Source: Octopus sinensis (lineage: Eukaryota). Taken from it: DNA of 64,000 nucleotides. Of the stretch, positions 3,624-63,338 are shown in pieces (positions within the stretch are counted from its first letter, which is position 1; each line of letters begins with the position of its first letter). Made by a program: the position numbers and the translations under genes. The DNA lies in assembly GCF_006345805.1 (NCBI RefSeq), contig NC_043007.1, forward strand, positions 56,048,001 to 56,112,000. The letters run 5' to 3'. Below the pieces are notes generated by a model that saw only the letters and a list, made by a program, of their open reading frames with translations, was not told where the DNA came from and made no database searches.

Positions 3624-4226
3624 TATAAAATCAAAATGAGGGTGAAAATTGGATATTAATTTGATAACATCAATTTTAACGCCAATGGTCTAGCATATAA
3701 AAATATGTATTACATACATAAATATAAGGGAATTTTTTACCACTATGTGGAAATCCTTATGCTAGAAAAGATCCGCTATGGTCTTAACCACTAAGAGTTC
3801 TGCAGAAAATTCTGCAAGCACCAGAAACGTAAGCGAGCAAGACAAATGAAAAGTAACAAAAATATAGACTAATCATAAACAATTGTTTCACTATTAATAA
3901 ATTACGTAATTTTACTTACGCAATTTATCTGTAGATCTTCAGTATGATCGTCTATAAAAACATAATTTGCAGAACTTCACGCCAGACATCAACACGATAT
4001 TGAAAATGTATGCAGTTGTACCTATTACATTTGTGGTTATTTTTAAAAGTCTTCGTATAGGTGCGCTAAATTACCGGAAATAGTACTGCATAAAATAATT
4101 CACTGCAGTAGACTTTATCCGGTTTGAGAACGTATTAATCTAAAATTAAAATCAAAATGAGCGGATCTTCTTCTAGCATAAGTGTTTCCACATAGTGCTA
4201 AAAAATTCTCTCTTATATTTATGTAT
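3624..4226 (-). mobile_element. ~0.52-kb non-coding hammerhead-bearing retroelement (retrozyme/PLE-like) with terminal redundancy and an inverted segment
   Basis: taaaatcaaaatgag repeated at 3626 and 4147 (521 bp apart). 3714-3777 is inverted at 4160-4226. 3624-3700 is homologous to the reverse complement of 60312-60378. Confidence 0.6.
3863..3956 (-). ncRNA. Type I hammerhead ribozyme (U10.1-U11.1 variant)
   Basis: Minus strand: stem I uauagac-gaucaua / uaugauu-a-gucuaua, core CUGAAGA, long stem II, GAAA, palindromic stem III AACAAUUGUU, cleavage triplet GUU. Confidence 0.75.
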
Positions 4227-4341
4227 ATACATTAATATATATAGTACTATATATTACATATATTGTAATATGTATAGTACAATTTGTATATAATATATAT
4301 CATATATTTATAAAATAGATAATACGCTATATATATATATA

Positions 4342-7442: not shown

Positions 7443-7886
7443 TCACCGAGTAGTAGTAGACAATTGCCTGACGCGAATGTTATTATCTGTGTAAGCGGTA
7501 AACTACATTTGATCATCAGCAGACCAAGCCAATGACATACAGAGAAAATCATCAAGAAAAACAGTAACAGTGTTCAAATATCCAGCATGACGATAGTGAT
7601 TAGTCTTCAGCTTGAAGTTAGTAGGCTTCCACACCTTTACTATATTATCCCGGCCATAGGTCACAATGATAGAGTGTGTGGTGCTTGGAGAAAAACGGAC
7701 ACAGCGTATGTGACCCTCTTCAGTAATTGTGTAGTTGCAAACACCAAGGGTATTCCAAAATTTAATAGATTTATCACGGAGTCGGATATAATTGTCACTT
7801 GAAAAGGAAACGTTCAAAACATCTTTACACTGGCCAACAATAGACTGGCTAAGGTCCCAGAGTCGCATGGTTTTGTCCCAAGAACT
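7443..7886 (-). pseudogene. RACK1: Processed RACK1 (GNB2L1) pseudogene, 5'-truncated with internal deletions
   Basis: [91 protein letters not shown] matches RACK1 WD40 blades and C-terminus. No introns; premature stop. Confidence 0.92.
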
Positions 7887-11356: not shown

Positions 11357-11481
11357 TATATATAATATACTGGAGTAAACACATAAATATAACAAACTCC
11401 GAGTAACAGGCTTTGTTGAATTTCTGCTGCTTTTAAATAAAGTATAATATAATATAATATAGGACAATCAGTTAATTGTCA

Positions 11482-11537
11482 TAATAATACTCAGAGTTTC
11501 AGATGCCGGGGTTAAAGGACATCCTCTTCAGTTATTA
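11482..11537 (-). ncRNA. Type I hammerhead ribozyme (minimal, PLE-type)
   Basis: Minus strand: uaauaa CUGAAGA ggauguc-loop-ggcaucu GAAA CUCUGA GUA uuauua. All core nucleotides present; stem I is 6 bp. Confidence 0.78.
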
Positions 11538-11705
11538 AAACAAAATGCTATGAAAAAAAAAAGCATTGAATAAAGGGAAGTTACTCTAATAGGCGTAGAA
11601 AAAAGTAAGTAAAGGTAAAAGATAGAAGATATGAAAATAGAACGACGCAAAGATAGACATCTTTGTTCATAAAATCTACTTACGTACACATGTATATATA
11701 CATAC

Positions 11706-11800
<95 letters not shown>

Positions 11801-12180
11801 TATATTTAGTACGACACGCGCATACACATACGTATTGACGAATACATACATGTATTGGAACTCATATATATAGGCACACACGCGCATGTATACATAAATA
11901 CACGCACATAGCATAAATATGTTTATATATTTGTACGTAACGCAAGATATAGGCGTTTGTGCAAAGTTTGACACATGCACACTTGTTAATACACTCACAT
12001 ATACAAATAAGTAAATATATACACGTGCACACATACATATACACATACACACACAGATACATATATGCATGCGTATACACATAAACATACACCACTGTAC
12101 ACGTATACTCATTCCTAAAGTTGACGGACATTTAGCTTTACGTAAAATCGAATCTCTAGTGAGACATTTTTATTTTTCTA

Positions 12181-12239
12181 TTTATTTGTGTACTCTAAGA
12201 GACCCAGAACGGATCGAAACATGTGTCGTACTAAATAAA
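12181..12239 (+). ncRNA. Degenerate hammerhead relic
   Basis: gtac-t-CT(-)AAGA-gaccc agaac ggatc-GAAAC ATGT GTC-gtac; G5 is missing. The 3' part is inverted at 11794-11817. Confidence 0.55.
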
Positions 12240-12381
12240 ATCTTTTTCTCCATCTATTGTATTAATACTGTTACCTCAACCACCACTATGAAGCTCCTGC
12301 AATCTACAGATAATAATAGGTAATTGAAACTGTGCTGGTGCTTTACTTATCATCCAGTTATACATTTTGTATAATTTCTCC

Positions 12382-12421
<40 letters not shown>

Positions 12422-21730: not shown

Positions 21731-23810
21731 CAGGGTGTTTCAAAAAATTTGATATTTCGCAATCTAATAACTCTGCCAGTTCTTATTCAAATGACTTCAA
21801 ATCTTAACAGCATATGTAGAAACAGATCAAAATTTTATATTTACGAGGGACGTTCAATAAGTAATGCCTCTGACCCACTTGCAGTTGTTTGATCTAGCTG
21901 AAATGGTGCATGTGCAATCATTTATATCTCTATAGAGTAAGTGGCAAATTACAGCTCTGAATTAATTGTGGTTTCTGATTTACAGGTGTTTGAACCGAGT
22001 CAAGTGTGAAATGGAGCCTGTTGAGTGTCGAGCAGTGATCCGGTTTTTGTATTTGAAAGGACGCACACCACGGGAAACTTTTGATGAAATGAAAGTAACT
22101 TATGGTGATGATGCCCCATCATATGACCTTGTAAAACACTGGCATCGTGAATTCAAACATGGTCGGAACTCTGTGGAAACAGCTCCCAGATCTGGTCGCC
22201 CCTTCAGCCATTGATGAGGCATCTGTCCGTCAAGTTGAGGCTGCCATTTTGGAAGATCGACGCATAATTATTCGCCAAATAGCCTATGAGGTCAAGATTA
22301 GTACCGGGTCTGTGGAAACTATCATTCATGACCATTTGCATATGCAAAAGGTGTCTGCCAGATGGATTCCCAGGTTGCTCACGCCTTTCCAGAAGCAAGA
22401 ACGCGTCGAGTGCTCGAGGGTGAATTTGGAGATGTGCCAAGAAGATGAGTCAAAATTTTTCAAAAGACTGATTACACAGGATGAAACCTGGGTCCATCAC
22501 GATGATCCAGAGACCAAAGCCCAGTCAATGCAGTGGAAGCACCGTGACTCATCCCCCCCAAAGAAGGCAAGAGTGCAGCCCTCCGCTGGCAAGATCATGC
22601 TCACAGTCTTCTGGGACCAGGACGGAGTAGTGATGACAGATTTCCTGGCAAAGGGTACCACAATTGCAGGAGCTTATTATGCTTCACTTTTGAGGAAATT
22701 AAGAGAAGTTATCAAAATCAAGAGGCGGGGCAAGATCAGCAAAGGCATCCTCCTCCTTCAGGACAACGCTCCGGTCCACAACTCGCTTGTCGCCAGATCA
22801 GAAGCACAGGCGTATGGCTATGAACTCCTCCCCCATCCCCCTACTTTCCTGACCTTGCACCCTCTGATTTTCACCTCTTCCCAGTCATGAAGTTGTTTTT
22901 GAAAGGAAAGCATTTCCCAGATGATGCAGCCTTGGTTTCTGAAGTCACGTTCAGGTTGGAGGACCAAGCTGGGGTCTTCTACAAAAACGGTCTCCAGAGC
23001 TGCATCAAACAATGGGAGAAATGCGTAACTCTGGGTGGTTTCTATATAGAAAAAGACTAATAACTGTACCAAGTTTCGTTGCTCTACTGCTATGGGAAGT
23101 GGGTCAGGGGCATTACTTATTGAACGCCCCGCGTATCTTTCCAGGTATAGAAATGGCATTCACTAGAATAGAAAAGGCGTTTTTGTGTTGGAGTATGCTC
23201 GAGCACAATCGAACAAGACTAAAAAGTCACCAACGGCAATGCAGATTTGGATATGGCACAAAAAGTAGAAGGCTGTCTGTGCAGGGCTAAAGGATTTGGA
23301 CGACCACTAACATCGGAAGAGACGGTCGAGCGGGTTCGCCTAAAACTTTTGCGAAGCGCCCAAAAGTTCATAAGAACAAGTCTGGAAACCCAGATTCCTC
23401 CAACGAATATTTGGCGTGTCCTGAGGAAACATTTGTTAATGAAGCCCTACAGGCTGCAGGACATGACGATATATTACAAGCAAAAGCGCAAACAATTATA
23501 TGTTGATGTGCAAGAGAAACTTGAAACCGAGTTCAAGGAACGTCTTGTTTCCTGCAAGCCTAGAAGAACTTGAGCAGAGAATCGTTACAGCACTGGAGAC
23601 TGTTGCCTAAGAGATGCTGCAGCGTGTTTGAGAGGAGCTGGACACGTGTGCCGTGTCTCAGGCGGTGCGCATATTGAACATTTGTGAAATCGTTTATGGA
23701 ATCCACATACTTTAAAATTTCTCATTCAAATTTGGAGGAATAAATTTTGTTGCTCAAAATTAAGCCTGTTTCGTTTCATTTGTTTTAATCATGTAGTTTG
23801 AAACACTCTG
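21731..23810 (+). mobile_element. Tc1/mariner-superfamily (DUF4817-type) element, deleted, hosting a nested mariner
   Basis: TIRs cagggtgtttcaaa / tttgaaacactctg with TA on both sides. Transposase remnants MAFTRIEKAF.. and ..CRVSGGAHIEHL*. Confidence 0.85.
21844..23133 (+). mobile_element. Full-length (1290 bp) mariner DD34D transposon with a frameshifted transposase
   Basis: TIRs cgagggacgttcaataagtaatgcc / ggcattacttattgaacgccccgcg with TA TSD. ATG at 22011 (MEPVECRAVIRF); WIPRLL, ITQDETW, QDNAPVH, YFPDLAPSD. Frameshifts near 22200 and 22842. Confidence 0.95.
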
Positions 23811-29200: not shown

Positions 29201-30524
29201 ATATATATATATATCCTCAATTCTAATGAGATGCATTATTTTAGAAAAATAATATATTTCTCTCAGATTTTATCAAATTGTCAGATTCTTAGTTTATGGT
29301 AAGTGTAAATATATATTTCATATAAAATATTTCAAGTAAAAACCTTAAATATGGCTCTATTCCCTAAAACATTCTCTATATATTCTGCAATTTCACCAAT
29401 ACGTATTTTAATACCTCGTCAGTATTTTATGCACACAGATGCAACTTTTATTCGATAATCTGTTAATTATAATATTCAAAACAGAATATTGATTATTCTA
29501 TATGTGCAGAAACAGTTCTACGAAGTTTCTTAGTATTTCTCTCATTTGTTCTATTTTTGTTCTTTTTTCTTTTTATATATCTAAAATGTTTACTCTCTCC
29601 AGTTATTCAAGTTTCCGATTCTTTTCTTTTCCGATTATTGTCTCATCATTTAGGAAGTTTTGTCATGCTCAAATTGAAATTTTCAAAATATCTGACGTGT
29701 TAGAGACATCACACAAAGAAAAGAAACTCGCTTTACTATCTTTTTAGTGAAAAAATTCCTCAACTTAGAAAAACTGTAATGGACTGACATAAAAAATTCT
29801 TACTTTCTGAGAAACTAAAATTACCAAAATTATATGAATCTTGTCCAACTAAGCTTGTTAAAAACTGCTGTCGGTAAGTATTGAATTTATGATCTTCACT
29901 CAGGTGATTTGGCAAGCAAAACTCTATTTAAAGTTTCGATATTCCATTGAACTCCGCTACTGGTCAAAGATAAGAACATTACATTAAATGTGCTTGATAG
30001 TTCAGACAAAAATATATTAAGTATCGTTAGAATTTCTGAATTCGCTTTGCTTTTCGTGATGACTTGACTCACAAAAATGTATAAATGGCTTACAGATATT
30101 CAAAGGCTGCTGCATCGTTCGAATTTGATAAAAGTAAATACTCGGAGACTATGACTGATTCTACTCAGCGATGGATGCAAGGAAATAATTTGTTCTTTTT
30201 ACTGATAAGAATAATTATCTAACGGCAAACGTATAGACAGTAATTCTTCAGAATCATCTATTAAAGAAACACATCCAAGACGGGAGCAGAAAAATTGTAA
30301 TCAGCAAAGAAAGAGAAAGTAAAAGTAGAAAGGCAGATCAAAGGCTGCACTCTGCACTGTTACACACACACGCGCACACAAAATCGCGCACGCGCACATG
30401 CATACTCACACATCATACAGACAGATAGGAATATGGATGTATATATTTCTATATATGTGTGTGTGTATGTATATATATATATATATATATTTATATACGT
30501 GTGTGTGTGTGTGTAAGTACATAT

Positions 30525-30659: not shown

Positions 30660-32340
30660 CTTGAAGTATGATATTTAAAGCCCGTTCACAGTATTTGGCT
30701 ATCTGAGGTCGACGACAGTATGAAGGTATATGCTATTGGATTTACTTCAGGAATGCTTTGGTGTCCATAGAATTTATTTAGAAAAACAGAAAATAGAATT
30801 CATGAGACCCTTTATTCAGAACCTCTACGATCGTTTTGACCCATCATGCATCGGTGCCTTACAGACGAGATGCTGTACAATCATCATGCACGATAGGTGC
30901 AGGTATGTCTCCTCTGGTGACTTTTCAAAAATAATTCATTATGGAAACGGTTATATATAAATTTCCAAAGCGAAGGTATCAGATGTTACTTTGGATTCTT
31001 CGAATATATATTACCAATATATATATATTACCAATGCGTTTAAGAGTGCAAAGATGGATAACACCTCACTTCCAATGGTAGTGGTTAGCTCTTACCAAAG
31101 TCTACCCAAACGTGCCTACAAGCTAATTGATAGCCCACTTCAGTATTACCAAATACCAACACCGGTATTCGGTCTCATACTCTTGCATATGGATTCATTG
31201 AATATGAGGTTCCCCATGGGAAATTTCACCATTAATTCGCAGTGACTGAAACAAAAGGATATTATGGCGAGATGCAACATTTCTGTGATCCTATTTGTGG
31301 TGACCATAAACTTACTGCTAAAGGTGGAAAGAAAACAGTGGCGAGGACTCCAAACTAATTAAAACACTGGATACTCAGTCTACAAGGCCGACCATCAGTG
31401 ATGACATAACGGTCATGTCACCATCAACCCAATGGATGCTGAGAACACTGAGCTCGCTGGAAAAGATACTTACATGGCCACAAATAAAGTTCAATCCATC
31501 AAAATCTCGGTGACTGAACATCCTTAAATAAGACTGATAAATGAAATTTCAACGTTCAGTGATTTATGATTCCAAGAAGGAAAATAAAAAGGAATCCAAC
31601 AGGAAGAATTACGACTGTACCCTTAAGGATATTGGCATCATCGGAGATCCTACAAGAGAAATGACTAAGGGCAGTTGATAAAAGCCGGCTTATGACTATG
31701 GTATATCCAATTTGGGAACATACACACATGCAATGTCCATTTTCGAAGTTCTGCCTAACAATTTCATCGGTGATAGAGGAATTCAAAGACAGGAAGGCAT
31801 GAACAATCTCACATTACTTCAGTCTGAGTATGAAAACGTCAAACAAGCTAACAAGATCATAAAGTACTACAGACTGTGGAAGGCCCGAGAAAAAAGTAGC
31901 AATATACTGGTGACGCAAAGAGATTGTTGGAATATTCTATCAAGGATTTGGCAACTACGGTGTCAAGAGAAGGATGAAACACAAACGTTAGAAGCAAGTG
32001 GTAGCTCTTATTACAAAGGATCCGCGGGTCACGAGAGGACAGTCGTCGTGAAAACGTAGTAGGGATTGCCCACGAAGGACAATGGATACAGTGGGACCAG
32101 GCACTCGAGCGCCTACTATCATAGTAACAATTCCAGAGTACTAACCATGGAAAATTATCCTTCTGCCTACGTGCTGTCAATGATATCTTGCCAAACCCAA
32201 GTAAAGTTAAAATATGAAACAAAGAGGAAGGTCCAACTGGCAAGCAATGCTGAAAACACTTTGAACTTTGAATCACATTGTGACCGGATGCGTTTGAGCA
32301 CTGGGATAGTACAGGAATCTCAGGCCCAACTACTACCCTT
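30660..32340 (+). mobile_element. Highly degenerate HERO-like RT/RLE LINE
   Basis: LLDLLQECFGVH (RT domain-3-like), RLWKAREK, GQWIQWD, FCLRAVNDILPNPS. Confidence 0.55.
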
Positions 32341-32432
32341 CATACTACCCCACCCCTGCTACGCTTGCTGTTACTGCAACCACTACTGCTGTTGCACATA
32401 ACAATATTATCAGTGATATCAGTGATGATACA

Positions 32433-32463
<31 letters not shown>

Positions 32464-32465
<2 letters not shown>

Positions 32466-34512
32466 CAAACTGTTCCCAGAAGAGCAGAAAGGATGCCGCA
32501 AGGGCTCATATGACTGTAAAGATCAACTAATGATTAATAAAGCTGTAACTGAAGACAGCCACAGAAAGAAGAAAGGCCTCAGTATGGCCTGGATTGACTA
32601 CAAAAAGGCGTTTGATAGCATCCCCCACACATGGATCCTCGAAACACTAGCCATTAACAAAGTAGCACCAACAATCATAAAATTCATAGAGCACTCTATG
32701 AATAAATGGCGAACAGTCCTACACCTCCAAACAAAAGAGGGACTCATGAAAACCAAAGACATCCCCATTAGAAGAGGAATATTCCAGGGAGACACGCTCT
32801 CTCCACTCCTTTTCTGCTTGGCACTGTCACCTCTATCTGATATGCTAAATAGAACTGGATGCGGATATAAATGTTACGGCAAAACGATCAGCCACCTTTT
32901 ATATATGGATGACCTAAAACTATACGCTGCAGATGACAAACAGCTGGAAACACTATTAAAGACAGTTCATGGATTTACCAAAGAAATAGATATGAAATTT
33001 GGATTAGAAAAATGCGCCAAAGTAACCATGAAAAGAGGAAAACTAGTTAAGAGTAACAACATCACACTAGATAAAACCAATGAAATAAAAGAATTAGACC
33101 AAAGCCAAACTTACAAATACTTAGGAATCCATGAACTAGATAAGACACAACACACACAAATGAAAGAGAAAATAAAAAAAGAATATTATAGACGAGTTAG
33201 ATCAATACTAAAAACAGAGCTCAATGCTAAAAACAAGATAATAGGTATCAACACTTTAGCTGTCCCAGTTATAAGTTACAGCTACAATATCCTTAACTGG
33301 ACACGAAATGAACTGTCCAAAATAGATAGGAAAACAAGAAAAATACTGACAGGATCTAGGATGCATCACCCAAAATCTGACATAGAAAGACTATATATAC
33401 AACGTATAGAAGGTGGTAGAGGCCTTATACAGCTGGAAAACTACTATAAAATAACCACCATAGGACTGCAAAAATACCTACTTCAGAAGGAAGGAAAACT
33501 GATCCAGATAGCAGCAAAACACGAGCAAAACAAAAAACTGTTCTCAGTATTTAAGGAAGCTGACAAATACAAACAAGAAATCATACCACCTAATAAACAC
33601 AAAGAAGAAGAAGAAGATGATGAAGAAACAACAAAAGCTATAAAACAAATGAAATCCAAACTAAAAATAGAACAGCAACGAGCCATGATAAAACGATGGC
33701 AAGAAAAACCCCTTCATGGTAAATACTGCACTAAACTAAACGCAAAAGAAATAGACAAAGAAAAATCCCAGCAATGGTTGAGAAGCTCAGGACTCAAAGC
33801 AGAAACAGAGGGATTTTTAATTGCAGCACAAGACCAAAGCCTCCCCACCAGAAATTACCAAAAACATGTAATGAAAAGAAATATTACAAGTATGGCCACA
33901 GCTCATAAGCTGAAACTAGAATCAATCAATCAATCAATCAACTGCAGAATATGTGGAGATGGACAAGAAACAATAAATCATATTATCTCTAGCTGCCCAG
34001 TCCTGGCTAAGAAGGAATATATTCACAGACATGACAGAGTTGGAACCTACATACATTGGAAGCTATGCCAACATTATGGAATAACAACAGAAAAAAGATG
34101 GTATAGGCACACACCAGAAAAGGTCACAGAAAACGAGAAAGCAACCATACTCTGGGATATGCCGATACACACAGATAGAGAAATTAAGGCCAACAGACCA
34201 GATATAGTTGTCAGAGATCATGAAGAAAAAAAATGCTTTCTAATTGATGTATCAATACCGGCAGATGACAACGTGTCTCTAAAAGAAATGGAGAAACTCT
34301 CAAAATACAAAGATCTGGAAATAGAGGTAACTAGAATGTGGAACCTGAAAACAGAAACAATTCCTATCATAGTAGGTGCATTAGGCATGATAAAAAAATA
34401 TTCAGACAAATACATAACAAAAACACCAGGACTTACAAACACATATAACATACAGAAAATTGCACTACTAGGCACTGCACACATCCTACGCAGAACACTT
34501 TCCATACAATAA
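32464..34512 (+). CDS. R4/Dong reverse transcriptase-restriction-like endonuclease, uninterrupted but lacking the N-terminus
   Basis: EQKGCR, WIDYKKAFDS, GIFQGDTLSP, LYMDDLK, YKYLG, GGRGL, CRIC..ETINHIISSC, RHD, NRPDIV, IDVSIP, EKLSKY. The first ~33 codons of the annotated 715-aa ORF come from flanking sequence. Confidence 0.9.
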
Positions 34513-34660: not shown

Positions 34661-37600
34661 GTACTATGCATCCGCGAAAATCTCAACGATCCTATGTGGT
34701 GAAAAGATTAGAAGTACTATGCATCCGCGAAAATCTCAACGATCCTATGTGGTGAAAAGATTAGAAAACGGCAACGTTCCCACAAAAAGCCTTCTTGGCA
34801 AGAGCGTATCCAACATCAAATTAAACTACCCAGGTCTGACATTGAATGTATGGAAAACCTTAAGGTTGACAAGACTACCAAACCTACAAAAACCCCCAAA
34901 TTAAAGAAAAAATACATGAAAACTATACTTGATATTGATGCCACCATAGAAACCATCAAACAAAAAGTATCTGCTAAAGCTGCCCGCATAGCGAGGTATG
35001 AAAAGCGTGTTGGATTCTTCAAGGACAACAACATGTTCAAAAATAACCCCCAAAATTTTTACAGGAAGATAGGGAAAACACCAGTTACTGTAAAGTGTGT
35101 ACCATCAAAAGACGAAGTGCACGGTTTTTGGAATAAAATTTGGGCAGAAGAAAAAGCAAACAACGAAAAGGCCCCTTGGATTGATAGAATAGCTACGGAC
35201 TTGTACTCCTTAGAGGAGCAAAAGTGGGAGGGTGTCAAGGTAGAAGATGTAAGATCTGCTCTCAGGAGGTCAAGCAAATGGAAGTCTCCAGGAAAGGATA
35301 AAATTCTTAACTTCTGCTTGAATGCCTTCCCAGAGAGGCATGAACTGCTAACAGAACTTTACAATGATGCTTTGCAACACCCTAGTAGGATGCCTGCCTG
35401 GCTAGCTAATAGTTTAACATTCTTGCTCCCAAAAAGTGAAGAAACAAACGAACCAAAAAGCTATTGACCCATAACCTGCTTAACAACTATGTATAAACGC
35501 TAACATCTGTCCTGACGGAATATACCTATAGTTTTTAATAGACAGCAGCATATTCCCTAATGAACAGAAAAGATGTAAACGTGGATCCTATGGTTGTGAA
35601 GATCAGCTACTCATCAATAGGATGAACTTAGAAGATTGTCACAAACGACACAAAAACTTGTCAATAGCCTGGATAGACTATAAAAAGGCTTTTGAAAGCC
35701 TACCACATAGCTGGATAAAGAAATGCCTAGAAATGTACAAAATAGTGCCTACTCTGCGAAACTTTTTGTCTGTAAGTATGAGATCATGGAGAACCATACT
35801 GACTTTGAACAGTGACGATGAATCTCTAAATGCTGGTGATGTAAAAATTTCATGTGGCATTTTCCAGGGCGACTCACTATCACCACTCTTCTTTTGTTTA
35901 GCCTTAATACCTCTCTCATAATTGCTCAATCACGCATAGTGCGGATATAAAATGTTGGATAAAAATATAAATCATCTCATTTACACGGATGATTTAAAGC
36001 TCTTTGCAAAGAATGGTCAACAACTCAACAGCTTACTAACGATTGTTAAACAATTCATCGAAGACATCAGAATGCAAATTGGTCTCGATAAATGTGCAAA
36101 AGCTACTTTTATCAAAGGGAAAATGACGGAAACATCTAACGTTTACTTCGACCAGCAGAATGTCATAAATGAGTAAGACCCAGTGGAGAGCTACAAGTAC
36201 CTAGCGGTAATTGAAGGGGATGGAATAAGGCATTCAGTGATGAAGGAAAGGATCAGGAGAGAATGTTATCACAGAGCAAGAGCAATACTCAAGACAGAGC
36301 TGAATGCAAGAAACAGGATCGAAGCGATCAATGCTTTAGCCATACCAGTCGTGACTTACAGTTTCAATATCGTTAACTGGTCAATTACTGAAATATGTAA
36401 TCTTGACAGAAAAATACGAAAACTGTTGACAATGCATAGAATGCACCACCCTAAGGCAGATATATATCGACTTTATCTGCCAAGAAAAGAGGAGGACGTG
36501 GGCTTTTACAACTGGCAATAACAATGAAGATTGCTACATTTGGCCTAGATACCAACCTGAAAAACTCTGAGGACTAGATGTTAAAACTTGTCTCAAAACA
36601 TAAAAACAATAAAGCATCATACTCAGTAACAAAACAGGCAAAGGAATATCTAAGTGAATTCCGAATACAACAAATTCCGGAATTAGACACACAAGAAACA
36701 AGCACAGAAAAAGCTAAGCGCATGAAAACCCGTGCTAAAACTGCTGCCTCAGATATTCTGAATGATAAATGGCAAGAAAAACCTCTCAATGGCAAATACC
36801 CAAAGAGAGTGAATAATGCAGATGTTGACAAAGCCCTGACCCCTCAATGGCTAATGGCCTCTGGCTTAAAATCTGAAACAGAAGGGTTTATCATAGCAGC
36901 TCAAGATTAATGCCTACCTACAAGGAACTACCAGGCCAAAATATATTAAAGAACGGCAGTAGCCCGATATGTCATGTTTGTCAACAACAAAATGGAACCA
37001 TTGATCATGTTGTATCCAAGTGCAGTCTTCTTGCGCCTACAGAGTATCTTAACAGGCATGATAGAGCTGCACAATATATTCACTTGGTAATTTGCAGAAG
37101 CCTGGACTTGCTCCATGATAAAAACTGGTGGGAACAGAAACCACCTCCAGTGCTTGAAAATGACCACATCTCACTCCTCTGGAACTTCACCATTCAAACT
37201 GACAGAAAGATAGACGCGAATAGGCCAGACATCATATTAAAAGACTTCAGACGAAAAACATGCCTCCTCATTGATATGACTGTAATATAAACGTATCTGT
37301 CAAGACCTAGCAGAAACTGAGCAAATATAAAGATCTGGAAACAGAAATCAGCAAAATGGGGAACCTGAAGACTAAAACAATACCTGTTGTCATAGGTGCC
37401 CTGGGAATGATATTAAAAGGGGCTGATTGCTACCTAACTCAGATACCAGGAAACCCCCAAATGGCAGAAATTCGAAAGATAGTGCTCATATCCTATGCAA
37501 AATACTTTCTTTGTAATCTCAAGTTTTAAAGCAAACATAATTTTCGTATGGTTTTTTAGGCATTCACTAGCACAACACTAAGTACAAAACCAAATGTATG

Positions 37601-37729: not shown

Positions 37730-40700
37730 GACCGGAAACGGGTTGAGCATCCTCCTCCTTATGGGCTGATTAATAATACATCTAGTGATGGTGTCACAAT
37801 AAACACACTGGTAATTGCGCAACCTGATAATCGCTACCTCATATGAGTGACAATGAAAGAACAAAATATTGCGAATAACGGTGGTGATGAAACTGAAGCC
37901 AATGATGGTGACAGTGTTACACCCGGTAGGCTCAGAGACTCTGGTGCGGCTCCAGCCTGTCGATATCTAGAAAGAGATATCCAGCCTGTCGATATCTAGA
38001 TGGAGCAAGCAAATCAATGCTGTGGTCATGGAGTGTTACTTTCTGAGCAGCCCGGTAGATGAAAATGGTGCTCAAGTTAGGGGTTACCGACAACGTATGT
38101 ATGACCATTAGACAGAAATCTACGACGATTTCATCTCAATCGAAGGAGAGGGGCTTTCTCCGTCCGGGTTGCGGATCCGTGGAATAAGCTGCCCGACGAG
38201 ATAGTGAAGATGCCAACGACCGCTCGGTTCAAAGTCTCTCTTGACCAGAAATGGCCTGAACTCTTTGTATGAACACCCTCCCTGTACATAACTCCATGTC
38301 TCCCTACATGACCTTGCTTTTGCTTTTTGAGCCAAAAGAATTAAATCAAATTAAACACGGAACAGAGACTATGTGATGAAGCTAGAGCAATAAGAAAAAA
38401 ACTGTTGTTTCACGGAAGTGGAGCTTGAAGCTATCAAAAGATGGGTCATGGAAAATACCAGCAGAGATAGCAATGGAAATACAGTTCTTACTAATAAGAG
38501 TAGTCTCATAGCACAGGAAAAGAGCAGTGGTAGTTTACTTGATGAGAGACATATAGATGATCTAAAAGAAGACAAGAAAACTAATGCTGACATAACAGAT
38601 GAACAAAAGGCAATCTACGACAGAGTAAAGGTAAGAATACAAGAGAACGATAGCGACATTATTTGCAACCTTAAAAAGGTTGATAGATGGAAATTGAACC
38701 AAGAAACGAAAAATGTCGATGAAATTCTGAAATACATCAGAACAAGCAATATCACAGAAACAAATAATTTGATCAAGGCAGCAAGTATTGTTGTAGCAGA
38801 AAACGTGGTAGTTGATGTCAGGAAAAAGAAACATAATGGGAGTGGGAAAAGAAAAGATCCATGGTGGAAAAGAAGAATCCAGGCAGGGTTAGACATGCTC
38901 TCGAAGGAAATCTTTGTGTTAGACCGAAAAGAGAAAGGGGAACTTAAAAGCGAACAAAAATACAGGGCGCTGAAAAAGAAGTATAATATTGAACGAAAGG
39001 GCCTGAAAGTGGTAATAGAAGAACTGAAACAGCGCCTCGTTGCAAAGAAAACAAAGCTGATAAGATACAACCAAAGAATGAAGGGTTATCACCAGAATAG
39101 GTTGTTCAGAGTAGATCTGAAGAGATTCTATAAAGAAAGAAATGGAGAGTGTACAGACGAAAAGTTGATACCAGATGACATTGAAAGTCAAAGGTTGGGA
39201 GTGACATCTGGAGCAAAGAGAAGGCGCACAAGAAAGATTCTGAATGGTTGCAAGAAGTGAAACAAGTAGTAGTCTGTCTAAAACAGGCAGAATTAGTCAT
39301 TTCAGTTAGGGAAGTGAAGGAAATCAGCAAAAAATGATCAACTGGAAGGCCCCAGGACCAGATGGAGTTCAGGGCTACTGGTTCAAAAGATTTGCTGAAT
39401 GTTATGCACGAACAGCTGCACAAATCAACACCTTGTTAAATGCCGACCAAGGAACACCAGAGTGGTTGACACTGGGAAGGACAATGCTGTGCCATGAAAA
39501 ACTTCGGAAAGGGCAATACGGTAGACAATTACAGGCCGATATCCTGTTTGCCACTTATGTGGAAGTAGTTATTCACTGGAATACTCGCAGAGTCAATGTA
39601 CGAACATCTGGAAAAAAATGGAATCCTGCCACATGAGCAGTAGGTTTCAAGCGTAAGTGCAGAGGTACCAAGGATCAACTCCTGATAGACAAAACTATAC
39701 TTAGAGACTGCAAGAGAAGGAAAAGTAACTTAGCCATGTCATTGATCGACTGTTGTAAGGCGTACGATGATCCCACATTCTTGGATTAGATTATGGAGTG
39801 TATGAACGTATTTGGTATTGCATCGAATGTCGAACGATTGCTTGAAAAAAGTATGGTGAATTTGAGGACGGACCTGACAGCATACAGACAATGTTTAGGG
39901 ACAGTAGAAATTAGGAGGGATATCTTCCAAGGCGACTGCCTGTCCCCACTGATCTTTGTACTGTGCTTGATACCACTAACACTGATTCTGAGGAACGCAA
40001 AAGCCACCAACAAAAATCAACCATTTGTTATTCATGGATGACCTTAAACTTTATGGTAAAGATGAAGCCCAAGTCAGTTCCCTCGTTGATATGGTTTATA
40101 CCTTCGGTGCTAATATCAGAATGGAGTTCGGACTGAGAAAGTGTGGTGTGTTAGTCTTGAAGAGAAGCAAAATCAAATGTATGGACGGGCTAACGATACC
40201 GTCGGGGGAGGTTATGAAGCAGATAGAAGAGACGGGCTATAAATACTTGGGGATTTTGGAAATGGATAAATTGAAGGAGAAAGAAATAGCAGAAAATTTA
40301 TGGTGGAGTACTTGCGCAGACTGAGACTGATCCTTAAGTCGAAATTAAATGGATGGAAGAAGATCGAAGCTATCAACACCTGGGCGGTTTCATTCTTAGA
40401 TATGGAGCTGTAGTAATCGCATGGACAGTAGACGAACTAAACAGCTTAGACAGAAAGACAAGGAAGTTGCTAACTAGATATGGGTCACTCCACCCAAAAA
40501 ATGACGCAGACAGATTGTATGTAGCAAGAAAAAGAGGGGGACGAGGATTTATTGGATGCAATCGCAACATTAGTGCAAAAGAAGACATAGCATGGTATGT
40601 AAAAAATGCCACAGAACCGCTATTATTAGAAGTAAAAAGGTCAGGCTTGTGTAGGATGAAATATTGCAAAGATAAAGCACTGTACAAGCAATTGAAAACG

Positions 40701-40916
40701 AATAAAACTGAAAATAGGTGGGTAAAGAAAAGAATGCATAGTCAATTTCGTAAGGATGTTGAAGATAAGACAGACGGAGAAAAAAGATGGCTATGGATGA
40801 ATAAAAGTGATTTAAGACCGGAAACGGAGGCTCTAATCTGTGCTGCCCAAGAGCAAGTACTAAGAATAAACTACATAAAATACAGAATAGACAACACAGC
40901 AGAAAGTGATAAGTGC
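37730..40916 (+). mobile_element. Third R4/Dong family element, degenerate, 3'-truncated
   Basis: DPWWKRRI, NWKAPGPDGVQGYW, DIFQGDCLSP, LFMDDLK, GGRG, ETEALICAAQEQ; breaks off at the first Cys of the zinc knuckle. Confidence 0.9.
38118..38356 (+). mobile_element. CR1/L2-type LINE 3' end nested in the R4/Dong element
   Basis: AFSVRVADPWNKLPDEIVKMPTTARFKVSLDQKW plus a short UTR and tail. Confidence 0.75.
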
Positions 40917-41551
40917 AATAGCCATAGATATATGTGAATGTTGAATTTGACCTGCGAAGTCTGCTCGTTATGAACTTTTGGACGTACTTGTGTGGAGGGA
41001 GTAAAAGACTTTTTTCAAGATGTATATGGATTTGACCTGTGGAAGTTTGTATACTTATGAACTTTGGGTGTATTTGTATGACGGAAGTAAAAGATTTTTT
41101 TCAAATATTTTTTCAAATATTAAAAAAAAAAAATTTTTGAAAATTTTAAAAATATTTTAATGACCTGATAAAACTATTTTAATTGGTGCATATTTATTTT
41201 TACCTTTATTTTATATTTGTCGATTAGGTTTTTGGAAGTTTTTGAATTTTTAGCCATTTAATATTTAACTTTTTGATAGGCCGTTCTGTTTGTATTTTAT
41301 TCGATTATATACTTTTACCTTCTGTGATTTTATGTATATGTATTATTATGTGTTTGGGAACCATGGTGAATTTCATATATGATTAAATGTTTGAGGGTTG
41401 GTGTTCAGTCGATCAACTATAGATCAATCGATTGATACAATGGAACTATGGCACTTGACCCTTGCTGTTAGCCTTCAATACATGTTGAGATCCTTTACTT
41501 GTGTATATTATATATAGATGTGTGTGTGTGTGTGTGTGTGTGTGTCTGTGC

Positions 41552-48000: not shown

Positions 48001-48355
48001 TTGAAACTTCAAAACCTCTTAAGGCAACTGGAAAACCATCTTCTCAAGTTCTTTCATTCAAGCATTCTTTCCCATAAACTGAGTGTATGTTTCGAGTCGC
48101 TTCGACTGCAGAGTTTCCTTTTTTGTACTCATAAAGCATTATGTACCTCAAATGCTCTTTGGATACTTCCATGTTAGAAAGGGTTTCAATCAAAGAAGTT
48201 TTAATTCTATTATTCTGTAAAATAATATTTAATTAGTTTAAATGTACACAAATACATAAAATTAATTTTTAATTCCATTAGACATTCAAGAATGTCTAAA
48301 AAAGGTAAAATCGGACGGAACATATGAGGTGATCTGATAATTAAAAAAAAACTAT

Positions 48356-51183: not shown

Positions 51184-52752
51184 GGATATTATGCTGGACA
51201 GAAAGCCCTGTCGCATTTCAAGATGGGAAAGAAACAAATGATTCTTTGTTCTTAAATGATATATTTAATCAAGAAACTATTTACCCTCATTGTTGATAAC
51301 ATAATCCCATCGATTTGACAAATTGTTAATAATTCGGGCGTAAAATTCTTCCGGTTTCGAAGCAAAGAAATAGTCAATATCATATATACAACTTCTTCAT
51401 AATTAATAATTGTTTTCCCTCTAGATGGTGCTGCAATGATCTAAGTCATAGATGGTGTAAGGTCATGAGAGTAAGGCAGATGAGACAAACCTTTTGTATC
51501 TTTTGCAGTGTGACTTTGGCAATATGTGCTCTTACATTACCGTATTTGAGTAGCACCCTGTCTATGAATGATCAATGATGGGCGCTTTTCTGCAAATTTC
51601 GGCGCTAGCTTCCAACTGACGACAGTAATTATCCGTATTAACTGCTTTGTTTGGATTTAACACTTCATGATAGACGACTTCTTTCGTATCCCACCAAACC
51701 CTGAGCATAACTCTTTGCGTGGGGTCGACCTGGTTTGGGGACAGTCCTTAATTTTCATTGGGTGCTAACCATTATCGTTTTCGTTGGAAATGATTATAGG
51801 CGATTCACATTTCATCACTTGTGAGGATTCCACTCAGGAAAGGTTTGGTAGCAAGTTTACTCTTCAACGGTGAGTAGAGGAAACAGTTAGATGTTGAGGC
51901 ACTGCATGCTGAATATTTGCATGAAGAAATATGCTCTTTATATATTTGTGACATTTTGTATCGATGATTAGTATTACTCTCTACATACATGCATATACAT
52001 ATATTTCGCTAAAACGCATTTGAAACAATGGACAACAGTCGAAATATCAATGGATGAGTAAATAAGCATCCTTAAAGTGAAATAACGCATTGGTAGATAA
52101 ACAAAGGTATCAACGAACAGAAGAGAGGGAAGGAAGCATCACCTTTCAAGTAACTCAGAATAGGTAAAGGTAAATGTTTAGTGCATGATCATCCTTGGGA
52201 CATAAGTAACGTGTGCGTAAAGTTTGGTGAAAATAGGTTGAGAATTGTGGAAATGTATGCATTAGTTATTATACACACACATACTGTGATTTATGTATAC
52301 TAGATTATCTGAGAACCCTAATAAGAGCATTTTAAACATGGATTGCTATGGTCCCGTAGAGGAAAGATTTACAAGAAATCTTAACAGCACAGCAATACCT
52401 GTTTTCTATTCTCTGCAATCTTTTTATGTTACATGTTTAAATATAAGTAAACTTCATCAATACGCCAACTCTTCTATCAGTATCCCGTACATATGCAAAA
52501 TCTTTCAATATCCTGTACATGTGTCAACTTCATCAGTGCCCTAGACGTACAATATCATCGTCGATATATTCAGACATACATCAATACTGTCCCAGGCACA
52601 CTGATAATCTGTGAAAAGAATTCAATATTTCTTTGACAGAAACAATATAACGTTGAATGAAATGGTTTGAGGTACTTCGTTTGCATCCTTCCATTTTTTA
52701 AAATTAGGATTCTTTAGGAGTTGTTATTCATGTTATTATTATTACTGTCATT

Positions 52753-55889: not shown

Positions 55890-56781
55890 TTGTGTAATTC
55901 CCAAAATAATGCCAGTTTTTCAATTTCATGAACTGAAAGTCGGAGGGGGACGGAATAAACTACCTGCATCAACTTGCTATAAAAGCAGATAGTAACTTTA
56001 TCTTGTGCAAGTTTTGAAGAGTGTAGTCCGATTTTAACAGTTATTTTTTCAAAGCTACAATGGAAGCGACAAAGGAGCATATTCAGCATATTTTGCTTTA
56101 TGAGTTCAACAAAGGCAACAACGAAACGGAAAGTGCGAGGAATAGTAATGCAGTGTATGGGGGTCGGACTACAAGCGTTAGCCAGTGTCAGCGGTGGTTC
56201 CAGAAATTTCGAGCCAGAAAGTACAGCTTAGAAGACAAACTTCGTCCTGGAAGATCTGTAAAGCTCGACAAGGACATCCTGAAAACCCTGGTTGAACAAA
56301 AGCTCATCATAACTGTTGATGAACTAGAAGAGAGGCTTGGACTTGGTCATTAAATCATTCATTGACACCTGTATGCCATCGGAGAACGACCATCTTTGGT
56401 TTCAAGACGAAAGGTGTTCTTCCATCCGCATAACGCTAGGTCACATACAGCGAGGATGACATACCAAAGGGAAATGATGCACCACCGACAATATTCGCCG
56501 GACATTTCCCCATCTGATTATCATTTATTCCTCAGTCTTCAAAATCATTTGGACGGAAAAAAATATGAATTCTGTAGACGAGGTCAGAACAGTACTGGAG
56601 GAGTATTTTTCGTCATGAACAAGTGAATTTTGGAAAGGGGCCTTGCAAGTCTACGAGATAGATGGGAGAGCATTGCAGAAAATAAAGGAGAGCATATTTT
56701 AGATTAAAAGAGATCTTGATTTATCTTAATTTTGAAAATAAAAGTAGTACAAAAAATCGCATTACTCATGGGATGACCCAA
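55890..56781 (+). mobile_element. Degenerate, internally deleted mariner
   Basis: MEATKEHIQHILLYEFNKG..CQRWFQKFR..LEDKLRPGR; HNARSH; YSPDISPSDYHLF. Right TIR catgggatgacccaa-TA; left TIR decayed. Confidence 0.85.
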
Positions 56782-59210: not shown

Positions 59211-60164
59211 TTATGTATATATTATGTGTGTGTGTGTGTGCGTGTGTGTGTGTGTGGTGTGTGTGTGTGTGTGTGTGTGTGTTGTGTGTGTGTGTGTGTA
59301 GATGTCTCTCGTGTGTTTATGCATTTTTCACTCGTGGTGCTCGCTACTCAATAACTATTTTTTATTTATTTATAATTGAACGCAACGCAGCCTTGTCCAC
59401 TGTAAGTTCTTACATGTATATATAATTTCAACGACTCTACACTCTGTTTTCTTTCTTTCTCTCTATCTCTCTATAATCCTTTATATTTCTCGATTGCCCC
59501 CCTTCTTCTTTGCTGTCTTCTGTCTGTCTTTCTTCCACTCCTTAATATCTTTTGTTCCTTCTCCCTTCTGTATCCCTTAGTTTCTTTTCCTTATCCTCTC
59601 TCTTGTCCCCTTCCTCTCTGTCTCTTTCTCACCGTGACTACAGGCCATTTCTCTCACCCATGTCTTTACTGAACGTGACCGCCACCGCGCTGGATGTCGT
59701 TTCTCTCGCCTCCCGACATTTTTCTCTTCTACTCTTTACATCTCTTTATTCTATTTCCTTTATGGCGTTACCCATTAGAATTCGTCTTGGCCTAACAGCC
59801 CATAATGTTCGTCTTCGTTGATTGTTTCCATCCTACATCCTTTCTGTTGTTGTTTATTCGTTCGAAGCCCTAATTTTCCACAAGCTTTACATTTTAAAAT
59901 TTTCTGGATGCTACTGTCTTATGAGGTTTTCCTATTTTGACGTTAAAAGCACGAAATGCGTCAGTAAGACAGTTGACAACTGATGAGCGAGTTATCTTCT
60001 GGTATTTTTTCTGTACTAGTCTCTCGTGTCTTTACGTATTTTTCCCCCCATTGGTGATGTCCTGTACTTAATAAATAAATATATATATATATATATATAT
60101 TATTATATATATATATATAATATATATATATATATACACATAAATATATATATATATATATATA

Positions 60165-60792
60165 TTGGTTTTGTTAAGTTTGATCTGAGAACATAAAAAG
60201 TTTTTGGGTGGAGAATGGCGATTTGACGTCTATATCTAGCATGTTGACTGTCCACTTTTCGTGTGCAGTCCTTAATTGGTATATTTAAATATTTTAATCT
60301 TCGGATTCTTTCTTTAATATGCTAGACCACTGGTTCTAATTGATAAATATCAATTTTTACCCTAAATTTAATTTTATAAATATTTGTTCTCTAACCGATA
60401 AATTAACTGCTGCTAACTATTAGCTGCAGGCTAGTTTTCTCGGGTCTCATCGCGCCAAAGTAAAGGCATTTGAAATATATATTTCAAATGTAATAGGCCG
60501 GACTCCATGCACGCGATATTTTGGTGTCGTGTTGGCATTTAGTCCAGCAAATTACATTTTACATGGGACCATGCTGATGATGCTGCACTTTTCCTTGCGG
60601 AAAATAACAGCTGAAACTAAATTTAGTACATGGGTAAATATTTATTTCGTATATTTTTCACTTGTTTATTGCTTTGGTTTTGTTGAGTTTGATCTGAGAA
60701 CATAAAAATTTTTTTGTGGAGAATGGCGATTTGACGTCTATATCTAGCATGTTGACTGTCCACTTTTCGTGTGCAGTCCTTAATTGGTATAT
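60165..60792 (+). mobile_element. ~509-bp hammerhead-bearing non-coding retroelement with ~120-bp terminal direct repeat, inserted in (TA)n
   Basis: 60165-60284 is repeated at 60674-60792; (TA)n on both flanks; complete hammerhead inside. Confidence 0.75.
60569..60633 (+). ncRNA. Type I hammerhead ribozyme (U10.1-U11.1 variant)
   Basis: ccaug CUGAUGA u-gcug-cac-uuuucc-uugc-ggaaaa-uaa-cagc-u GAAA CUAAAUUUAG UA caugg; predicted cleavage after GUA at 60628. Confidence 0.85.
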
Positions 60793-60816
60793 ATATATAT
60801 ATATATATATACATAC

Positions 60817-60896
<80 letters not shown>

Positions 60897-60937
60897 ATAT
60901 ATGTTTAAATATTTGTTGTGCAAGATTTTTTATGTGA

Positions 60938-61279
60938 AGAAGCATAGGAGAACGGGTGAATGAACATTGGAGACAACTCAAGGAAGGTAAAAGCTCATCG
61001 ATTCTGTACCAACACGCCGAACAGGAACACGGGGAATCAATCAATAACATAGAGATTAAGATATTTCCACACATAGAACAGATGCAACAATTAGACAAAT
61101 TACAGAAGCTACACATATAATAGAAAATAAACCTAGCCTGAATAGAAAACTAGAATGGAGCAATAGCACACACCACAACATATGACGATAGAGGATCCCG
61201 AAAACATAATAAATAAATACACAGATAAATAAACAAATAGAAATGAATAACTATATATATGTATATATATCTATGTATG

Positions 61280-61849: not shown

Positions 61850-62419
<570 letters not shown>

Positions 62420-62445: not shown

Positions 62446-62490
<45 letters not shown>

Positions 62491-63251
62491 GTACAGGACA
62501 TCACCAACGGGGGAAAATACGTAAAGACACGAGTGACTAGTACGGAATAAATAACAGAAGAAAACTCGCTCATCAGTTGTCAACTGTCTTACTGACGCAT
62601 TTCGTGCTTTTAACGTCAAAATAGGAAAACCTCATAAGACAGTAGCATCCAGAAAATTTTAAAATGTAAAGCTTGTGGAAAATTAGGGCTTCGAACGAAT
62701 AAACAACAACAGAGTGGATGTAGGAAGGAAACAATCAACGAAGACGAACATTATGGGCCGTTAGGCCAAGACGAACTCTAATGGGTAACGCCATAAAGGA
62801 AATAGAATAAAGAGATGTAAAGAGTAGAAGAGAAAAATGTCGGGAGGCGAGAGAAACGACATCCAGCGCGGTGGCGGTCACGTTCAGTAAAGACATGGGT
62901 GAGAGAAATGGCCTGTAGTCACGGTGAGAAAGAGACAGAGAGGAAGGGGACAAGAGAGAGGATAAGGAAAAGAAACTAAGGGATACAGAAGGGAGAAGAA
63001 ACAAAAGATATTAAGGAGTGGAAGAAAGACAGACAGAAGACAGCAAACAAGAAGGGGGAAATCGAGAAATATAAAGGATTATAGAGAGATAGAGAGAAAG
63101 AAAGAAAACAGAGTGTAGAGTCGTAGAAATTATATATACATGTAAGAACTTACAGTAGACAAGGCTGTGTGGCGTTCAATTATAAATAAATAAAAAATAG
63201 TTATTAAGTAGCGAGCACCACGAGTGAAAAATGCATAAACGCACGAGAGAC

Positions 63252-63338
<87 letters not shown>

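Follow-up and report, generated by a model that had tools for sequence, protein, structure and literature searches.

A circularly permuted, non-coding hammerhead repeat family in TA arrays of Octopus sinensis, very probably mobilised by Penelope-like elements

The stretch of Octopus sinensis DNA analysed here (64,000 nucleotides of contig NC_043007.1, positions 56,048,001 to 56,112,000 of assembly GCF_006345805.1; hereafter the window) contains on its plus strand, at 60165-60792, an element (e1) that self-alignment resolves into 1.23 units of a non-coding repeat of 508/509 nt. The 5' copy of its terminal redundancy (60165-60284, +), a partial tandem resembling a pseudo-LTR, recurs at 60674-60792 with 96.7% identity over 120 columns, the period being 509 nt and then 508 nt after one indel. 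This bears out the 509-bp unit with about 120 bp of redundancy proposed in a preliminary description of the locus, as does the position of e1, likewise anticipated, between two (TA)n target arrays at 60071-60165 (from the repeat annotation of the window) and 60788-60902, the latter overlapping the last TATAT of the element. An 11-nt match between the continuation of the e1 unit and 60904-60914 leaves the exact 3' end slightly uncertain, and target-site duplications are unreadable inside TA arrays. Both terminal repeats carry a G (60265 and 60773) where T makes up 95-99% of the summed depth of family contigs in two public sequence runs (X1 and X3). Since this family-rare letter occurs in both repeats, the redundancy was probably regenerated from one unit; copying probably went round a single e1 unit more than one time, via a circle or a template jump.

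Positions 60569-60633 (+) of e1 hold a type I hammerhead motif, recognised by a descriptor with a shuffled null, by folding and by helix III variants in contigs. Helix I comprises five base pairs (CCAUG/CAUGG); the core reads CUGAUGA at 60574-60580, followed by an extra U, a branched helix II and GAAA; helix III is the palindrome CUAAAUUUAG, and the GUA triplet ends at 60628, after which the cut is predicted. The minimum-energy prediction for 60555-60645 is a three-helix hammerhead, although the fold of this segment by itself has no exceptional stability (z -0.94; equalled by 31 of 200 shuffles). Descriptor and predicted fold thus agree with the earlier claim of a complete type I hammerhead in e1. 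A minimal-hammerhead descriptor gave five matches in the window against one in total over 30 block-shuffled windows; a descriptor match at 29422 (-), AT-rich and missing under a stricter descriptor, was dropped. Rfam assigned no hammerhead family to the window motifs (none among the 150 of 157 matches listed), returning only microsatellite-driven miRNA noise, and the hammerhead call therefore rests on our purpose-made descriptor.

A diverged relative (e2) occupies 3626-4161 on the minus strand and comprises 1.03 units of a 521-nt repeat, circularly permuted with respect to e1; self-alignment returned the period of 521 and the exact 15-nt redundancy (4161/3640) that had been attributed to it. 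It carries its own hammerhead motif (3871-3949, -; descriptor and fold), with CUGAAGA at 3942, a long helix II, the helix III sequence CAAUUG and a GUU cut at 3878. Aligned with each other in genomic order, the two elements give scores of 30 and 75, against 41±14 (maximum 85) for 200 shuffles; once rotated to the cut site they are identical in 334 of 470 columns (71%, score 234), or in 334 of 468 when exact units are rotated. Because the rotated units align end to end, the repeating unit is about 510 nt long and closes on itself, and the homology spans all of it, beyond the single shared block first noticed. That block lies 193 nt (e1) and 178 nt (e2) downstream of the predicted cleavage site, so the proposal that block and ribozyme have swapped order, with the block some 180 and 200 nt past the cut, holds. 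At its 5' end e2 adjoins an inverted, truncated copy of itself (4160-4229, +; 88.6% over 70 columns to 3711-3777), the two being joined 5' to 5' at 4160/4161 and the 3' end of the inverted copy facing out into TA-rich DNA. Read from the alignment, this 5' inverted copy is a hallmark of Penelope-like elements (PLEs).

Neither unit has evident coding capacity. The longest ATG frames in tripled units are 44 aa (e1) and 30 aa (e2), a 93-aa stop-to-stop frame of the unit gave no Pfam match, and tblastn with eight PLE-type proteins found nothing in either unit; by ORFs, Pfam and tblastn, an ORF for reverse transcriptase (RT) plus GIY-YIG endonuclease is absent between the repeats of both window copies. 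With GC contents of 0.33 (e1) and 0.31 (e2), both are, on ORFs, Pfam and base composition, non-coding and below 50% GC, as non-LTR retrozymes are defined.

In both elements a U flanks helix II on each side and helix III is palindromic. The helix III sequence itself differs between them, and one contig of run X11 has a third palindrome. Duplex energies of helix III are -10.8 and -6.4 kcal/mol, and the isolated hairpins have 0. As the palindrome is kept across variants and forms a duplex but no stable hairpin, we infer from these predictions that selection may have favoured dimer-type cleavage via helix III. The preliminary description had called this ribozyme architecture unusual, which it is not for PLEs: the layout CUGANGAU...UGAAAC-palindrome-GUH equals that of published Hydra-clade PLE hammerheads (File S2 of PMC8557442), and the e1 and e2 ribozymes also agree with the PLE hammerhead features given in PMC4209133. 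Most of the Hydra-clade families listed in Files S1 and S2 of PMC8557442 insert into (TA)n, and one of them comes from Octopus bimaculoides.

Outside e1, in the same cluster of TA arrays, lies a frameshifted C-terminal fragment of a PLE-type GIY-YIG endonuclease with its 3' UTR (60903-61251, +; tblastn to proteins P0121, P0125 and P0129-P0131). It emerged only through translation and homology: Pfam on 222 window frames found no GIY-YIG domain (R4/Dong-like RT, mariner and WD40 were found), and P0129 and P0131 have weak Pfam GIY-YIG matches below the cut-off. Among named proteins the fragment is closest to one from O. bimaculoides (51% over 43 aa), whose best longer match is an O. vulgaris RT protein. 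The RT motifs of the longer relatives of the fragment (P0128-P0133) did not turn up in the Hydra/Naiad/Chlamys supplement of PMC8557442; a Hydra-clade assignment of these relatives was dropped, their RT motifs differing from the Hydra alignment. With this fragment only 110 nt downstream, and with a hammerhead type and a (TA)n target that are those of autonomous PLEs, e1 and e2 might be taken for truncated tail ends (pLTR/UTR junctions) of such an element. We regard this as improbable, since two diverged copies, broken open at different points, each close on themselves at about 510 nt, which leaves no place for an ORF. The UTR of the neighbouring fragment has no similarity to e1 or e2, so that e1 is not its pLTR; no sequence shared between e1/e2 and an autonomous PLE terminus was found among six other window segments or in the Naiad/Chlamys/Hydra supplement; and 0-1% of the aligned family contigs of X1 and X3 continue into dissimilar DNA, a test that the short contigs (about 80 nt) limit.

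Three further intact hammerhead motifs lie in the window, 65-123 nt upstream of TA arrays. At 61975-62416 a fold-back of two inverted copies between TA arrays has an intact minimal hammerhead in each (cores at 62325, +, and 62062, -), both with the U3-A8 core covariation reported for Schistosoma PLEs (PMC4209133). The third intact PLE-type hammerhead, at 11362-11690 (-; core 11531, cut 11488), sits in a unit of about 330 nt between TA arrays that is unrelated to e1 and e2, and a degenerate hammerhead-like motif can be seen by eye upstream of a TA array at about 12140-12383 (+). Around e1 and the adjoining features stands an inverted pair, 59631-60077 (+) and 62481-62925 (-), 96.9% identical over 447 bp, with further segments at 59300-59434 and 63121-63255; both copies terminate in a TA array and contain, by eye, hammerhead-like remnants. 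Elsewhere, 7503-7886 (-) is a degraded WD40 frame (Pfam WD40), presumably a RACK1 retrocopy, and 32284-34512 (+) encodes a non-LTR RT with an open frame of 742 aa (Pfam RVT_1; about 55% to the best database matches). Degraded copies follow it at about 34712-37290 and 38394-40937, making three stacked elements, which we take to be R4/Dong-like. Mariner transposase remnants (Pfam HTH_48, Transposase_1) occur at 21966-22887, 48047-48232, 51565-51747 and 56027-56350. Both R4/Dong-like RTs and mariner are abundant in O. vulgaris (PMC13282606).

The e1/e2 sequence was found in 20 of 24 listed public runs, spanning five organisms, with half or more of the sampled words present in three. Contigs aligned to one unit (reference 60225-60733) numbered 1035 in X1 and 856 in X3, all 30 bins being covered; this is a multi-copy family with many variants, which contig depth displays while allowing no copy-number reading. 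A non-coding, multi-copy and non-autonomous hammerhead family had been postulated, and in neither window copy is a PLE ORF attached. Among the listed runs that contain the element, none is recorded as RNA. Two runs guessed to be RNA yielded 8 and 17 low-depth contigs, one of them spanning the cut site (X13 record 21); as contigs cannot show strand, level or ends, they are not used as evidence. Pattern scans of metagenome, viral and prokaryote collections gave 0 matches, and nine metagenome matches to a gapped core pattern were rejected as chance, helix I being present in none of the nine and BLAST similarity lacking.

Folded as circles, the units are predicted to be 69% (e1) and 66% (e2) paired and surpass their shuffles, with z-scores of -6.6 and -3.2 and 0 of 40 shuffles reaching the same level; the antisense strands fold well too (z -5.0 and -2.7). 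Base-level covariation between e1 and e2 depends on the alignment: for conserved pairing p ranges from 0.001 to 0.4, and for pairing conserved despite changed bases from 0.17 to 0.55. Of 16 common family letters placed in the fold of e1, ten fall at unpaired positions, three keep a pair and three lose one; 15 family letters applied jointly give -133.7 kcal/mol against -122±5.5 kcal/mol for random placement, with 1 of 60 as low, which is a weak hint. The common family letter at 60522 turns the loop of an e1 hairpin (60515-60526) into UUCG, and this loop suggests that the predicted fold of the family is tighter than that of the e1 copy.

A first 3'-end zone (zone A, 60284-60292, +; +164 to +172 nt after the cut) includes the end of e1 itself (60792, equivalent to 60284) and a family end at 60292, where 10 contigs of X3 enter (TA)n (among the 21 of 132 loose-end rows listed); the inverted copy of e2 ends at a roughly homologous place, the alignment being poor there. 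To a second zone (zone B, 60376-60383, +; about +256 to +263) belong family ends at about 60378 and 60383, with one contig each (X13 and X11) running into TA-type repeats, and the direct end of e2, which maps to 60376. The six 3' ends seen, window copies included, fall into these two zones about 90 nt apart, and 5' ends are dispersed at +46, +103, +242 and +337 nt from the cut, a family 5' end at 60457 being present in three contigs (among the 21 of 132 loose-end rows listed). Loose ends into TA-type repeats account for 4 of the 21 rows listed out of 132, three of them 3' and one 5'. Summed contig depth, an unranked quantity that is not copy number, peaks just upstream of zone A. All four 3' ends of the e1 family lie at positions ending in ATAT or TATA, which make up 3.5% of the unit, a coincidence subject to ascertainment bias, given that an end was identified by its transition into TA. 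This coincidence of letters hints at priming by TA microhomology, which differs from the result obtained with an anole PLE (PMC11167929).

Insertions of PLEs are marked by partial tandems, by inverted copies at the 5' side and by a one-sided tail (PMC8557442), which has been attributed to reverse transcription starting at two internal sites (PMC11167929). Partial tandems and variable 5' truncation are present in e1, e2 and the family contigs, as in PLE-mobilised elements; a 5' inverted truncated copy with a one-sided tail is seen in one example, e2, whose inverted end lies near zone A and direct end in zone B; and an insertion bias towards microsatellites is apparent, both window copies and 4 of the 21 loose-end rows listed running into TA-type repeats, in line with the TA targeting first suggested. 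The dispersed, permuted copy starts expected from the preliminary description were found only in part: the 5' ends are dispersed, and the 3' ends keep to two zones in the ordinary PLE pattern of tail and 5' truncation. Two 3' start zones combined with 5' truncation therefore explain the permutation between e1 and e2 without random priming on a circle. We consider it very probable that this is a non-autonomous element mobilised by a PLE. Permuted copies of more than one unit can also arise from DNA circles, and e1 and e2 could be dispersed satellite remnants spread at the DNA level, by unequal exchange or circular DNA, with the ribozyme as a relic. Satellite-type amplification of retrozyme units has indeed been proposed (bioRxiv 10.64898/2026.07.22.740005). 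The 5' inversion, the strand-polarised 3' ends at two zones, the TA targeting and the conserved catalytic core point instead to RNA-templated insertion, and spread at the DNA level is the least probable of the explanations weighed here.

As to the template, the reading we favour, at about an even chance, is that a non-coding repeat of about 510 nt is copied into (TA)n by a PLE RT and endonuclease, most likely from ribozyme-cut, religated circular RNA; given mobilisation by a PLE, the circle as template commands a little over half of our confidence and stands slightly ahead of a linear multimer or a template jump. Longer copies with two ribozymes would be transcribed, two palindromic helix III strands would pair as a dimer and release unit-length RNA, and a host ligase would close it. 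The (TA)n-targeting PLE protein would nick a TA array and begin to reverse transcribe at an internal position, +164-172 or about +256-263 nt past the cut, at short ATAT/TATA words. Copying would then pass backwards over the cut and continue beyond a complete unit, the outcome visible in the DNA as 1.23 and 1.03 units, and would stop at variable 5' points, perhaps adding an inverted truncated copy, of which the DNA likewise displays the outcome. Both e1 and e2 are longer than one unit and read across the predicted cut site with no letter gained or lost; if cleavage belongs to the cycle, reverse transcription that starts at +164 and passes the cut would require religated RNA or an exact jump. 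Each window copy has one ribozyme, so that neither e1 nor e2 itself would release a monomer; a copy with two ribozymes was seen neither in the window nor among the family contigs, which at about 80 nt are too short to display one. Related retrozyme units yield circles in coral, mussel and axolotl (PMC7229834).

What counts against the circle is that 3' ends cluster rather than scatter, in the 21 of 132 loose-end rows listed and with two of the ends represented by a single contig each. The same PLE-dependent, non-autonomous element could be copied from a linear template, either an uncut read-through multimer or by an RT template jump, the permutation reflecting only two RT start zones and variable 5' truncation and any circles being by-products. 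Two 3'-end zones with variable 5' ends fit the PLE tail signature and internal initiation on unprocessed RNA; in vitro work on the one PLE assayed so far had uncut RNA as the chief substrate, insertion unaffected by mutating the ribozyme, and reverse transcription beginning at sites non-homologous to the target (PMC11167929). Moreover, pLTRs and head-to-tail copies are also formed by the non-autonomous PLEs of the Chlamys group, most of which is without canonical hammerheads (PMC8557442), PLE-type hammerheads are of low activity in vitro (PMC4209133), and only one of nine Xenopus retrozyme dimers was cleaved in vitro (bioRxiv 10.64898/2026.07.22.740005). A linear template alone, however, leaves unexplained an intact core and swapped helix III palindromes across 29% divergence, and plain linear partial-tandem copying would not place a rare letter in both repeats without a jump or homogenisation. 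We put the linear template somewhat short of even. The circular reading can be extended, more tentatively still, to an old cephalopod lineage in which a dimer-cleaved circle of about 510 nt would be reverse transcribed in a rolling fashion; the enzyme would be a PLE protein directed to (TA)n, and TA microhomology would prime it at two fixed sites.

A model of copying from a circle past unit length, and an origin of animal retrozymes from PLEs, have already been published (PMC4209133, PMC7229834, bioRxiv 10.64898/2026.07.22.740005), the published link between PLEs and retrozymes resting on co-occurrence and pLTR similarity. A 0.5-kb unit that combines 5' inversion, tail, TA target, Hydra-type ribozyme and permutation is small enough to assay, and the family makes circular versus linear templates for PLE partial tandems testable; if the extended circular reading is true, the genome itself would directly link the circles of retrozymes to the mechanism of PLEs and offer a way into the origin of PLE partial tandems. 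Among the papers listed we found, by title or abstract, none on cephalopod retrozymes, and the Zenodo, Repbase and Dfam libraries may hold a consensus under another label; the supplement of a 2026 O. vulgaris repeat annotation contains no ribozyme terms.

Metazoan non-LTR retrozymes, as described in PMC7229834 and bioRxiv 10.64898/2026.07.22.740005, share with e1 and e2 a non-coding low-GC unit, a type I hammerhead whose palindromic helix III is weak, a unit RNA predicted to pair strongly with itself, occurrence in many copies and a proposed PLE mobilisation from circles. The unit of about 510 nt compares with 150-450 nt in the former account and 51-972 nt in the latter. Those retrozymes form tandem arrays, and an 'active' retrozyme is defined by arrays of two or more ribozyme-bearing units (bioRxiv 10.64898/2026.07.22.740005), whereas e1 and e2 comprise 1.0-1.2 units with one ribozyme, neither reaching at least two ribozyme-bearing units. 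The ribozyme here belongs to the PLE type, its helix II being long or branched, in contrast to the canonical ones of metazoan non-LTR retrozymes, and TA targeting, 5' inversion and two 3'-end zones are features not found in the parts of these two accounts consulted. On the other hand, the PLEs of PMC8557442 likewise have a U on each side of helix II, a palindromic helix III, a (TA)n target, partial tandems, 5' inverted copies and a one-sided tail; e1 and e2 differ from them in having no ORF and a tail of about 90 nt versus 30-40 nt. Six short motifs from e1/e2 were searched in the consensus sequences available from that source (0 of 6 found), and visual comparison with the ends of Hydra-1_Obim suggests no relationship. 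Compared with the minimal hammerheads of PLEs (PMC4209133), the motif here belongs to a self-contained, ORF-less unit with a helix III of 6-10 nt. Non-autonomous Chlamys PLEs such as MRC1 are likewise ORF-less, pLTR-forming, head-to-tail parasites of PLEs, but they come from green algae, most lack canonical hammerheads and their 3' sequence is shared with a known autonomous partner (PMC8557442). We conclude that e1 and e2 likely represent a new family of an already described kind: non-autonomous, PLE-dependent and of the non-LTR retrozyme type.
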